DNA of 64,000 nucleotides from Octopus vulgaris. Lineage: Eukaryota. The notes beneath the pieces were generated by a model, which was given only the letters and a program-made list of their open reading frames with translations, was not told where the DNA came from and did no database searches. How positions within the stretch are numbered: the first letter of the stretch is position 1; each line of letters starts with the position of its first letter. Made by a program: the position numbers and the translations under genes. The stretch is taken from positions 248,001-312,000 of the forward strand of contig OX597834.1 of assembly GCA_951406725.2 (NCBI GenBank). Direction: 5' to 3'. Positions 12,601-18,600 of this stretch are shown one piece after another.

Positions 12601-15600
12601 ACATCTGTCAATACTTTATGGCATATGAAATGGTATTACATAAAACATAAGTGAAATATTGTAATAATCCATGGGTTTGCTGGAAATGGCCACCAGAATT
12701 CATCCACAATGCAGTAGGGAATGGTTTAAGAAAATTTACATTAGGGAATCAGATTTGAAAAATAATTGGGGAGGAAAAAAACTAGTTGCGCGATCAGAAA
12801 TGAAATTATCTTAAGAAATAGGAAATATAATTATCATAGATCACTTCATTGATTTAGGTAAATATTGGGATCAGTTTAGCATTTACAGATCATAAAATTT
12901 GGCTGTGAGGTTGGAGATCTTTAATGACACTACAATGTGAAAGAAGAGGAATTTATCAGATACATTAATGTATATATAAATATATATATATATATACATA
13001 TTTTATATATGCTTGTTTGGCAGGTGTACTTGATACATACTGCAAGTTTTTCCTTTTCAGCAGCTTCCTCCTGGTTATTAGAAATAAAAGATCTTTAAAT
13101 ACTTTGAAAGAATTCTTCAAAACAAGATTATTAACCACTTTCAAACAGTTAAGTTTCCTAAAGGTTAAAGAAAATCTAGGAAATGATTAAACAAGTTTGT
13201 TTTTTTTTCTTTACAATTTCAATTAAAAGCTATATATATATATATATGTATGTATATATATATATATATATATATATATATATATAATACTGCAATAATT
13301 TTATAACCTCTAATGTCTACTTTGGTATCATCAGAAAGAAGACTGATAATCATTTCAATGGAATACATCAAACACACAAACAATTCTCATGTATAAATAA
13401 ATAGACAGATTTTACTATTGTCTGTAAGGAGAAATCTCCAATTAAGTTTTATATATTTTCCATAAATATTTATGGAAAATATAAAATGCTTCTCCCTTTT
13501 ATTTAACCAGTGGACTGCAACAGTAACAGAATGAACATGTTGACAGCATTGTAGATAATGATAGACACATTTCAACATAAATATTTTAAAAACAGAAATT
13601 GGATGAGTGAGGAGAGGTCATGTTGGTTCAACCAAGAAGAACTATATTCATAACAAAAAGAAAAAAAAGAAAAAAGCTAATTAATTAATTCAAAGACAAC
13701 ATGTTAATTAAACACAAACAAAGATAAAACTTCAAATTCAGATTTAAAATTGAATAATCTCCACTTCTAGAAATTAACTCTAATTAGCAAGAAGCATGCT
13801 GCAATTACAAGTGTTAATGCTACAGTTCTATATGGAATCAATCAATTAATCTTGGTGATTAGATTAAAGCTAAATACACGGATGGCAGAAAGACAAATTG
13901 ATTTTAAGCTAAAACTAACATGGCTGGTCTAAACCTAAAAGAAGAGTGAATTGTTTCACAATGAAATTCAAATGACACTGAAAGAAAACAGATTTTTTTG
14001 ATAGACTGGGGTCGGGTAGATCTACTGTGAGTCTTTCAACTATCTGTGAAATCTATGGCAGTGTGTATAAAGATATTAGGGATAAATGAAAATATATATT
14101 CTATATAACATTAGCTATGACTAGGTTTACACATGAAATACATGTTTAGTTTTTATTTATATAGTTTTATTTTATAGTTATTTGTGTGTGCACATATAAA
14201 GAAGTAACTGTGCATGTATATATATATATATACGTAATTAATTAATATATATTAATTATACACCTGAACAGTGCCCGAAATGTCTGGATCTAATGAAAAA
14301 TTTGCCAGATATATATTTTTGGTGGGGATCCACTAATGAAGATTTCAGCAGAAATATTTGATGAAAGATCAACATTACCGTATTTGTTTTGACAGTAATG
14401 TATTAGGGAGAACCAACATCCACATGTCATAATCTTTCTGTCATTCCTTTGTCCGAATAACAACAATGTGTCTTCAGTGACAGAGTGCTTCACCGTGTTT
14501 TAATGTGAGGTATTATAGAATTGAAATGCTTTCAAGAAAATTAATCATGAGACGCAGTGCAGTTGAATGGCCACCAGAGTCCTCGAGTCTGTGAGGTGGT
14601 GGTGGTGGTGGTGGTTATAAGTCAGGAGACTCCATGAATCAACTCAGCATTATCAATGAAATACATTAAAAAAATGAATGCAATCATATCCAGATGTGAT
14701 AACACTAGAGGAGATAATCCAAGAAGGACTCAACATTCCGGTATTTGGTAGAGTCAAAAATATTGAAAGGTCAAAGGTCACCATTCGCAGCTTTCATTGT
14801 TATTTCATGCTTTTCAATAATTCAAGAGCTCTCTTCAGAGATCCTAACTTGACAGTTTCCTTATCCATTTATTCATTCATACGGACATACACACACATAC
14901 ATATACACGTGTCTATACGTGTGTGTGTGTGATATATGCATGTATGTGTTAGTGTGTGTGCTAAATAGTGGCTACAGTTACAGTAGAAGAGAGAGCTCTG
15001 TGATTGAATCTAATAAAGCTGGTGAGCGATAAAAATTTTTGCTGTTGAATGAGGAATCTGCAACCAACAAATCAACAGAATTCTCAAGTAATCACAAAAT
15101 AAAACCACAAACTACTGTAACTGGTGTATATAATATGTAATATTTAATAGTACTTCATATTACTGTTAATATTAAGACCAACTGATGTGAATAACAGCTG
15201 ATATTGGCATGTCAACAGCTCTATACTCCATATATCAACATATGGGCCTGAAAGGGTGAGGGTCATTACTGGATTGGTTGACTTGAACTCAGAATATAAA
15301 CTAATAAACTATATACTGTATAGCTTCTGTACACCATTCTTCATATTTTGTTAATTTCCCCAACATTCTGACATAATTATGTAAAAAATTATGTCAACAG
15401 GTCTACACTGCATTGACATAGTTATATAAAAAAAGTACAGATCAGGCCCTTGAGAATATATTTTCTCTGCTACAGAGGAATAGATAGCTGAGTATATGAT
15501 AAACGATGGAGATCACCACTGCCACCATCATGTATACGTAATCTGTGATGATGAGTCTGCTAAAATATATTTTGTTGGACTCATGGTTATGCATTAAAAA

Positions 15601-18600
15601 TTTTGACTCTTAGACTCCTTGTTTTGAGTTGTTTTTCAAAGTGGCTCAATAATATCCTTCCCAGCCTGTTACTTCTGTCAATAGATACATATAAGTGTCT
15701 ATTTATATATATAAACATACACACACACATATATATAGATAGATATATACATACACACACACACATACATACAGACAAGATGTTGCACATAACTATAGAT
15801 TCACAAATAGATTTTTAAACTATTTTCATTGTTTGTTGATTGACTATTTCATTAGTTGTAAACCGACACTGCAAGCAGCCGCTAGGAAGAGCGCTACTAA
15901 ACCAAGAAGGCAACTAATGGGAGGCAAGATGCAACAGATACATACTTCAAGTTTTTTCTTTTCAGCTGCTTCTTGCTGCTTGTCAAAAACACGGAAAGAA
16001 ATGAATGTGCTTACGGGTAAAAGGTTGGCCTCACTTCTAGCTTTCACCATCAAAACATTTAATTTTTTTTATATACATTAAAGTCACTTACTTTGAATAA
16101 TAAAAATAATGAATAATGAACAGAAAATGTAATTAAAATATTTTATAACAACATACTAATTATTGTAGAATTATTTTGAATCACAAACAAAAGTTTATTT
16201 TTATTAATACAAAACAAAGTGATTTTTGAGTAAAATCATATATCTATAAGCTGTAACATAATTGGAGTTAATTATTATTAAATCATTTATAATTAAGTTG
16301 AGAGGTTTTAAAAATGCATAACATGCATATTTATTGTTAAACATCTAACCTAGGTTTATTGGAGTTAATGTTATTAAAGATACACTTCTTTACTGACGAT
16401 TTAGTACAGAGCTTGCAAATATTTATCCTTGTGACTGGTTTTGACAAACCAATAATCCGATGTAACCCATTTTCTTAAAATATATCTCAAAAGGGAATGC
16501 TTAACATTTGATACTTTTCTTAAGGAAACATTTGTTGGGACCGGTGTCGACAGAGGACCTCAAATAAGATGTGTGAGTGAATGTCTGATAATTCCCCACA
16601 ATGTTAATGTTGGGAATAAAATTGCATGAATAACAAGTTAAACAGGAGCATTGTGTGTTGATTGAATCTTTGACCTGATTATTTGTGGAAAGAATTACAA
16701 GGATAGATGCTTTGGTTTGCTTTGAGTATCACAGCCCAGCATTGCCTAAGTGAAATGTTTGTATGCTTCAATGAAATTGATGTCAAAAAGATAAAGTTAC
16801 TGTTTACTCTTCAGGTAGAACATGGATAATAGTTGGTTGTAGACTAAACAGAGAGGATATAATTGAGCAAACTCCAATACATGTTTTTATTAACTCTGAA
16901 GAAATGCCACTAAGCATTCTGTCCTGTAGGTTAATAATTCTGATAATTCACCACCTTAACAACCCTAATAATAATAATAATAATCCTGTCTACTATAGGC
17001 ACAAGGCCTGAAATTTGGGTGAGGGGACCCCAGTACTCCACTGGTACTTATTTTACTGATCCCAAAAGGATGAAGGGCAAAGTCAACTTCAGTGGAATTT
17101 GAACTCAGAACATACAGACAGACAAAATCCCACTAGCCCAGCGTGCTAACAATTCTGCCAGCTCACTGCCTTTTAATAATAATCCTTTCCACAATAAGCA
17201 GAAGGTCTGAAATTTTTGGGAAAAGTGTTTGTTGATTATACCAACCTTCGTGCTTCACTGGTGTTCATTTTATTGACCATGAAAGGATGAAAAACAAAGC
17301 TGACTTCAGCAGAATTTGAACTCAGAAAGTAAATATAGGTGAAATATTGCTTAGCTAATGATACTGTCAGTTTGCCACCACCACCACAATAATAATAATA
17401 ATAATAATAATAATAATAATAATAATAATAATAATAATAATAATGGCAGAAGACCGACAATTTTATGAAGACTTAGTTGATTATATTGATCTGGGGGAGA
17501 GGGGGGGCAAAGTTGATCTCCGTAGTATTTGAGCTCAGAAAATTGTGAATTGCAACAATATCACAAAACATTTCTTTTGAATCTTTAACAATTTGGCCAA
17601 TCTAACATCCTTATAGTAATAATAGTAAAAATAAATCTTTCCATTATAGGTAGAAGGCCTGAAATATTTGGAGAATGAGTTAGAGGATTATTTTGATCTC
17701 CCTGGTGGATTAGTACACATTTCATTGACCCCCAAAAGGATGAAAGGCAAAGCTAACCTCAGCAGAATTTGAACTCAGAATATAATGGTTGCATATTTTG
17801 ACACAAGGCCAGCAATTTCAGAAGAGGTGGGTAAGTCAGTTACATCAACCTCAGCACTCAACTGATACTTATTTTACCAACCATGAAAAGATGAAACACG
17901 TGGTTAAATTTAGCAGAATTTTAACTCAAAAACATTAAGATGGTTGAAATAACACTAAGCATTTTGTCAAACACAGTAACGATTCTGCTAGCTTGCTGCC
18001 TAAATAATAATAATGATCCTTTCTAATGCAGGCTCAAGGCCTGAAATTTGAGGGGAGGAGGTAGTTGATTTCATCGACCCCAGAATGTCTTCAACCCCAA
18101 AGGGATGAAAGGCAAAGTTAACTTCAGCAGAATTTGAGCTTTGAATGTAAAGATGGACAAAATACCCCTAAACATCTTGGCTAACATGCTAACGACTCTG
18201 CTACGTTGTTGCCAAAATGATGATAATGATAATCCTTTCTAATATAAGCACAAGACCTGAAGTTTGGGGAGAGCATGCTAGTTCATCGACCCCCAAAAAA
18301 GGGTCAACCTTGGCAGAATTTGACTCGGGACATAAACGAAATGCCTCTAAGCATTTTGTCTGGCATGCAAATGATTCTGCTAACTCACTACCCTTAAGAC
18401 TACTACTACTAATAATAATAAAAATAACAACCTTTTCTGTTATAGGCACAAGACTTGAAATGTTTTAGGTGGGGGGACACAGGCTAGTTGATTATATTGA
18501 TCCCAGTGTGCAACTGGTAGCGACCCCAAAAGGATGGAAGGTCAAGTTGAACTTGGTGGAATTTGGAATCAGAATGTAAAGACGGATGAAATGCTGCTAA

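Follow-up and report, generated by a model that had tools for sequence, protein, structure and literature searches.

The Cav2 gene of Octopus vulgaris contains, within one long intron, two 30-nt exons (A and B) whose sequences mark them as tandem duplicates, and their use would give three forms of the channel, with neither exon, with B, or with A and B together (0, 10 or 20 extra residues). The added residues are predicted to extend the S6II helix on its cytoplasmic side. Cav2 is the channel that triggers the release of transmitter at the synapses of cephalopods.

The exon pair and its host gene

The host gene is octopus Cav2: a record bearing the name Octopus vulgaris Cav alpha-1 type A contains a match to the downstream exon, and a tblastn search with an O. 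sinensis isoform as the query placed domain I to the C-terminal region across the window (the whole stretch of 64,000 nucleotides that was analysed) and 80 kb beyond, with A and B corresponding to residues 802-821 of the query. The nearest solved structures are those of human Cav2.2, 2.1 and 2.3. The preliminary description of this DNA had supposed that automated annotation often misses such exons, which is true of the model of this assembly (P0001) only, as RefSeq models of two other Octopus species hold both. The features around the pair, in window positions, are as follows.

20590..20690, minus strand: constitutive upstream exon, encoding the IIS6 end and the acidic stretch AEEEQEG, with a phase-0 donor GTGAGT (basis: spliced joint 20690>21886 in 4/4 runs)
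15976..15981, minus strand: tandem AAG-CAG acceptor of A, of which only CAG 15978-15976 is used in records
15975-15946, minus strand: exon A, 30 nt, seen only together with B (basis: its peptide occurs in records from squid, O. sinensis and O. bimaculoides)
15850..15945, minus strand: candidate regulatory element in the intron just 3' of A, GC-rich, with four YGCY words and one ACTAAT
13070-13041, minus strand: exon B, 30 nt, used alone or after A (basis: B>690 contig in run X5, protein records, and Table 1 of Dunn et al., 2018)
569..690, minus strand: constitutive downstream exon, encoding the end of the predicted helix and then the conserved PPQVNICPP motif

A and B are identical at 25 of 30 nt and are both phase 0-0; each is preceded by CAG and followed on its 3' side by GTATGTATC. 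They divide the host intron of 19,899 nt, which extends from the exon ending at 20590 to the exon starting at 690, into pieces of 4,614, 2,875 and 12,350 nt. Taken with nine donor bases, A matches B at 34 of 39 positions, while the second-best place on both strands of the whole window reaches 24 of 39, and the flanks show no likeness past about -3 and +9. An all-against-all scan returned 254 intron pairs at 34/39, five of which are not low-complexity; one of the five is A/B, and the other four belong to a single interspersed repeat. A 29-letter pattern spanning A and B was found in exactly two places in the 2.8 Gb genome (reversed control, 0). This pattern count and the intron pair scan rule out a repeat or transposon origin. 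Neighbouring, similar, and alike in phase and splice context, A and B are on sequence grounds tandem-duplicated exons. The preliminary description had both exons and their peptides in the right place, and its view of an exon duplication within an otherwise dissimilar intron is borne out by these comparisons.

A scan for candidate exons run without a pyrimidine cut-off gave four candidates of 30 nt, two of them A and B; at a cut-off of 14 it gave no output, A and B being missed as well. The pyrimidine tracts of both exons are modest (13/20, versus 13, 14 and 15 at the three neighbouring constitutive acceptors whose boundaries are exactly known), and of the tract plus CAG noted earlier, the CAG is confirmed and the tract proves no richer than at these neighbours. 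At 30 nt, A and B fall outside the strict microexon class (3-27 nt) and within looser usage, the median of fly eMIC exons being 31 nt (PMC8797185). Compared with the eMIC/Srrm4 neural microexons, as far as the consulted part of that source describes them, the octopus exons are similar in being about 30 nt long, frame-preserving and located in an ion channel gene, but differ in having no UGC (none over the 100 nt 5' of either exon), short AG-free zones (1 nt for A and 20 nt for B, versus 26, 27 and 37 at neighbouring constitutive exons) and kilobase introns. A CUAAY-type word, CTAAT, lies at -11 for B, with none for A. The eMIC/Srrm4 signature (PMC8797185) thus appears mostly absent from the pair, and neural enrichment of A+B would be a guess.

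With regard to the candidate element 3' of A, four or more YGCY words occur in 0.7% of intron windows (a post hoc count); YGCY and ACTAAT have known binders in MBNL and QKI. An RNA hairpin hiding the acceptor of A was rejected, no special fold being found (z -0.13 for A and 0.04 for B). Other elements of the window include (i) an interspersed repeat in several copies (17000-18300 and 20800-21450), abundant in RNA contigs, (ii) an open stretch of 217 codons (39747-40397, minus strand) that lies in a Cav2 intron and includes several C2H2-like zinc-finger motifs, probably the end of a retroelement, and (iii) a unit of about 140 nt in several head-to-tail copies (30857-31208), recognizable by its repeated translations.

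Exon use in protein records and transcripts

Of thirteen cephalopod records returned, all except P0125 and P0129 extend over the site, which leaves 11. Six of the 11 contain A+B (squid BAA13136.2, which we take to be a cloned optic-lobe cDNA, and its second version; O. sinensis X1 and X2; and two O. bimaculoides RefSeq models), three contain B only (O. bimaculoides UniRef models), two contain neither exon (the O. vulgaris and Argonauta models), and none contains A only. With A and B together in six records and A alone in none, the exons stack, and mutually exclusive use is contradicted. The models with B only have gaps elsewhere and may have overlooked A, and every small optional exon scored is missing from both skip records, so the records are weak for the skip and B-only forms; those two forms are taken from the RNA contigs.

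Squid and three Octopus species share the peptide of B letter for letter; octopus and squid separated about 270 million years ago. The A peptide of O. sinensis is identical to that of O. vulgaris, and one residue is different in squid and one in O. bimaculoides; its net charge is 0 in O. vulgaris, +1 in squid and -1 in O. bimaculoides. At the peptide level, the conservation in relatives that had been sought for the two 30-mers is present in octopus and squid records, with A varying by one residue. All six A-containing records use the acceptor giving 15975 and none uses the upstream AAG, so the 11- and 21-residue forms once considered were not found among them.

Five of 24 listed sequencing runs, guessed to be RNA and carrying no tissue labels, were compared with the window, the evidence being assembled contigs, which demonstrate the presence and not the absence of a junction. 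Since 20690 is joined to 21886 with CT..AC ends in all four runs checked for this joint, these four are spliced. The skip junction 20590>690 was found in 4/4 runs covering the downstream exon (X10, X16, X11 and X5). X10, X16 and X11, which come from three studies and two organisms, each have one contig running from the downstream exon straight into the upstream exon, and the record positions of the long X10 and X16 contigs leave zero letters inserted between them. In X5, the skip contig has a depth of 11.9 and a second contig, of depth 2.85, has 30 shown loose letters that equal exon B. Exon B is thus joined to 690 in 1/4 runs, at low contig depth, and the main contig is the skipped form in 4/4. 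The bin depths of X5 imply a further contig (depth 4.6-5.1) matching one base past the donor; the G that follows 20590 fits B, which starts with G, and not A, which starts with C, and so indirectly suggests B.

The presence of both the skip and B>690 in run X5 establishes exon B as an alternative cassette exon. Of the junctions that the preliminary description had proposed to look for, 20590>690 and 13041>690 were recovered; no exon A junction was seen among the loose ends listed for the five runs (A>690 in 0/4), and contigs drop rare forms. The presumed use of A in O. vulgaris is drawn from the records of its relatives. Together, the records and contigs support cassette use adding 0, 10 or 20 residues to the charged helix after IIS6, much as the preliminary description had proposed. 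With a squid record holding both exons and a main contig in four runs holding neither, one sequence does not represent the channel.

Part of this splicing is already known: Table 1 of Dunn et al. 2018 (PMC5818475) gives O. bimaculoides Cav2 with and without the exon B peptide, and the surprise is accordingly modest, since splicing here is known. Exon A, the duplication, the three-step series and a functional test of the splice are absent from the accessible part of that paper. Our literature search, which did not extend to subscription journals and bioRxiv supplements, gave no paper on octopus Cav2 microexons and none that describes exon A, the duplicated pair or the wider slot set out below; only PMC5818475 bears on the splice, and the available portions of PMC7939481 and PMC9282427 contain nothing on it. 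Neither the duplicate pair nor the sharing of this slot with optional inserts of bivalves, one nemertean and one annelid was found in the literature searched.

Other small splice choices were observed in the same gene. An alternative acceptor adds ISFS after the downstream exon (L002 about 6947, minus strand, 3 kb below window base 1), both forms being present in RNA contigs and records, and a 27-nt optional exon (NANRINTQP) of the II-III linker (L002 about 5643-5617, minus strand) is included in 8/11 records; with A and B, these make four small splice choices in the II-III linker. A 15-nt optional exon in the GALGIN region of the I-II linker (window about 35759-35745, minus strand) is found in 7/11 cephalopod records and is absent from the assembly's model. 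Two alternative IVS1-S2 exons (FYVNP or YNGSS; P0008 versus P0127), about 27 kb below the window, also appear in Dunn 2018 Table 1 (PMC5818475).

The same slot in other phyla

The insertion slot was located on protein isoforms alone, by counting 25 residues from IAVDN. In all eight manually assembled groups of bivalves, nemerteans and annelids (Argopecten, Mercenaria, Ruditapes, Mytilus, two groups of oysters, Lineus and Owenia), each with at least two records, optional inserts begin at this one position. Among the cluster members listed, slot inserts were found in 0/5 gastropod groups (8-16 records) and 0/8 arthropod groups, absences that are soft because at most 15 members per cluster were examined. 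Biomphalaria shows at the slot a one-residue difference and one odd model. In the part of Dunn et al. (PMC5818475) consulted, an Aplysia splice is listed for this region and a Crassostrea insert of 18 residues is placed at the slot, a site called near e18a.

The inserts are 7-24 residues long and unlike in sequence. Five of 16-19 residues, picked by eye, are mutually similar (z 3.6-4.0) and resemble the start of the following constitutive helix (z 2.7-3.8); A and B resemble neither these inserts nor that helix start. Descent of A/B from the bivalve-annelid cassette was rejected, with no signal in register (p 0.20-0.50) or sliding (p 0.34). Mercenaria (P0209/P0218/P0026), Mytilus (P0367/P0356/P0357) and Lineus (P0228/P0222/P0053) each have two unrelated inserts that occur singly at the slot, and one Mytilus insert has a net charge of +7.

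A broader reading, in which a single S6II slot has been the length dial of Cav2 since the mollusc-annelid-nemertean ancestor, is a tentative one and less likely than not. It would include an ancient 16-19-residue cassette, a copy of the following helix, surviving in bivalves, Owenia and Lineus, and its replacement in coleoids by a duplicated, rigid 10-residue module stacking in steps. If true, invertebrate Cav2, which is without the W-helix, would gain its own cell-type-specific control of inactivation via the beta subunit.

The predicted S6II helix and the putative role of the exons

In an AlphaFold model of the A+B fragment, one continuous helix (375-453) is predicted through S6II, A (425-434) and B (435-444), running to KDL and followed by disorder, with pLDDT 80-90 over 421-450. 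As the fragment was modelled without beta and its overall packing is poor (pTM 0.40; TM-score about 0.3 to solved Cav2), the model supports the helix and not the contact. The skipped form has the spacing of human Cav2.1 and is collinear with it, without a net indel, as far as the V-x-I motif; the microexon junction aligns to human Cav2.2 731/732 and would lie four residues past the acidic stretch that in Cav2.3 holds the AID. A similar human Cav2.1 segment, EEEEAANQKLA, does exist as the preliminary description stated, but in register it aligns to the constitutive QEGVRQE-RM junction and not to the microexons.

The S6II C-terminus contacts beta1 in Cav2.2 (bioRxiv 2021.07.08.451561), beta3 is sandwiched between the AID and S6II (PMC9708679, PMC10761187), and in Cav2.3 open-state inactivation is set by the acidic stretch 715-721 (PMC9889812); the accessible parts of these four sources give no residue range for the beta contact. 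In alignment, the 715-721 stretch falls in the upstream exon, and every octopus form retains it. Octopus Cav2 resembles the Cav2 S6II described in three of them (PMC9889812, PMC9708679, bioRxiv 2021.07.08.451561) in its long helix and acidic stretch; in what these sources present of human Cav2 S6II, no optional exon was found at this position, and the spacing equals that of the octopus skipped form.

Our analysis leans towards a role in which the exons make the beta-facing end of S6II longer and shift its phase, likely tuning inactivation or current size; every step beyond the helix is one that we infer. A and B would extend the cytoplasmic end of S6II by 0, 10 or 20 residues. Inclusion would keep the acidic contact in the upstream exon and, in a rigid helix of ideal geometry, would displace the ancestral helix end together with the PQVNICPP motif outward by about 15 or 30 Å and rotate both through about 80 or 160 degrees. 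Lengthening by neither, one or both exons would thereby be likely to change the contact of S6II with the beta subunit, and through it inactivation or current size. The 0/10/20 series would be a natural ruler for the effect of a long S6II helix on the beta subunit; the human structures, in the parts available, show the S6II-beta contact and do not use a change of helix length as a test.

Among the closest known systems are vertebrate Cav2.2 e18a and Cav2.3 exon 19, which are likewise in-frame cassettes of about 20 residues in the proximal II-III linker and have beta-dependent effects on inactivation and current size (PMC5633781, PMC9889812, as far as consulted). The beta-dependent action of the nearby e18a (PMC5633781) is in keeping with the proposed role, but the same source reports that e18a left inactivation unchanged in native sympathetic neurons, and the octopus linker lacks the tryptophan helix through which vertebrate linkers inactivate. 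In Cav2.3, the exon encodes a helix just before this W-helix (764-783 in Cav2.2), whereas the octopus slot is about 30 residues earlier (731/732), inside the S6II extension, and so is not in an e18a-type position beside the W-helix (731/732 versus 764; no W); e18a is also serine-rich. Any W is present at this part of the linker in 9/229 protostome records; protostome linkers carry here a PxVxICPP-type motif in place of the tryptophan helix, and P-x-[VIM]-x-[IV]-x-PP occurs in 207/229 protostome Cav2 records. In the octopus, PPQVNICPP (window about 640-615, minus strand) lies about 17 residues 3' of the exons, in a region predicted to be unstructured, and may be either PxIxIT-like or the equivalent of human ANMSI.

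Against the proposed tuning of the beta-facing helix end, it may be held that the slot simply tolerates insertion and that the exons, though conserved, have little effect on gating and at most one on trafficking or stability. The range of insert lengths (7-24 residues) and their unlike sequences, their absence from the five gastropod and eight arthropod groups among the members listed, and the predominance of the skipped contig in 4/4 runs fit such a slot; the near-invariant peptides of octopus and squid and the optional slot in three phyla imply selection, and we regard the explanation as unlikely. Rather improbable, too, is that the exons are a rigid spacer that repositions PPQVNICPP as a docking motif and changes the reach of a bound partner, with no tuning of gating. 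We presume a resemblance of the motif to the PxIxIT calcineurin-docking site and of the A/B repeats to EAAAK-type rigid linkers, both of which would suit a spacer, as would the motif's frequency among protostomes and its predicted unstructured surroundings. In the skipped form, however, V-x-I of the motif aligns to M-S-I of human Cav2.1, so the motif may be a structural element of the channel, and the literature searched held no paper joining PxIxIT, calcineurin, Cav2 and II-III.

The mutually exclusive charge switch (net 0 versus -2) that the preliminary description had offered as an alternative draws on the paralogy, equal length and shared phase of A and B, and on the single use of two different inserts in Mercenaria, Mytilus and Lineus, but is very improbable given the co-occurrence of A and B in 6/11 records from three species, squid included, with A never replacing B, the unconserved charge of A, and the 2,875 nt between the exons, which leave no steric block. 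It is just as hard to believe that exon A has fallen out of use in O. vulgaris, as the lack of an A junction in the five runs and a crowded acceptor with several AGs might suggest, since its peptide is identical to that of O. sinensis and its splice sites and frame are intact.
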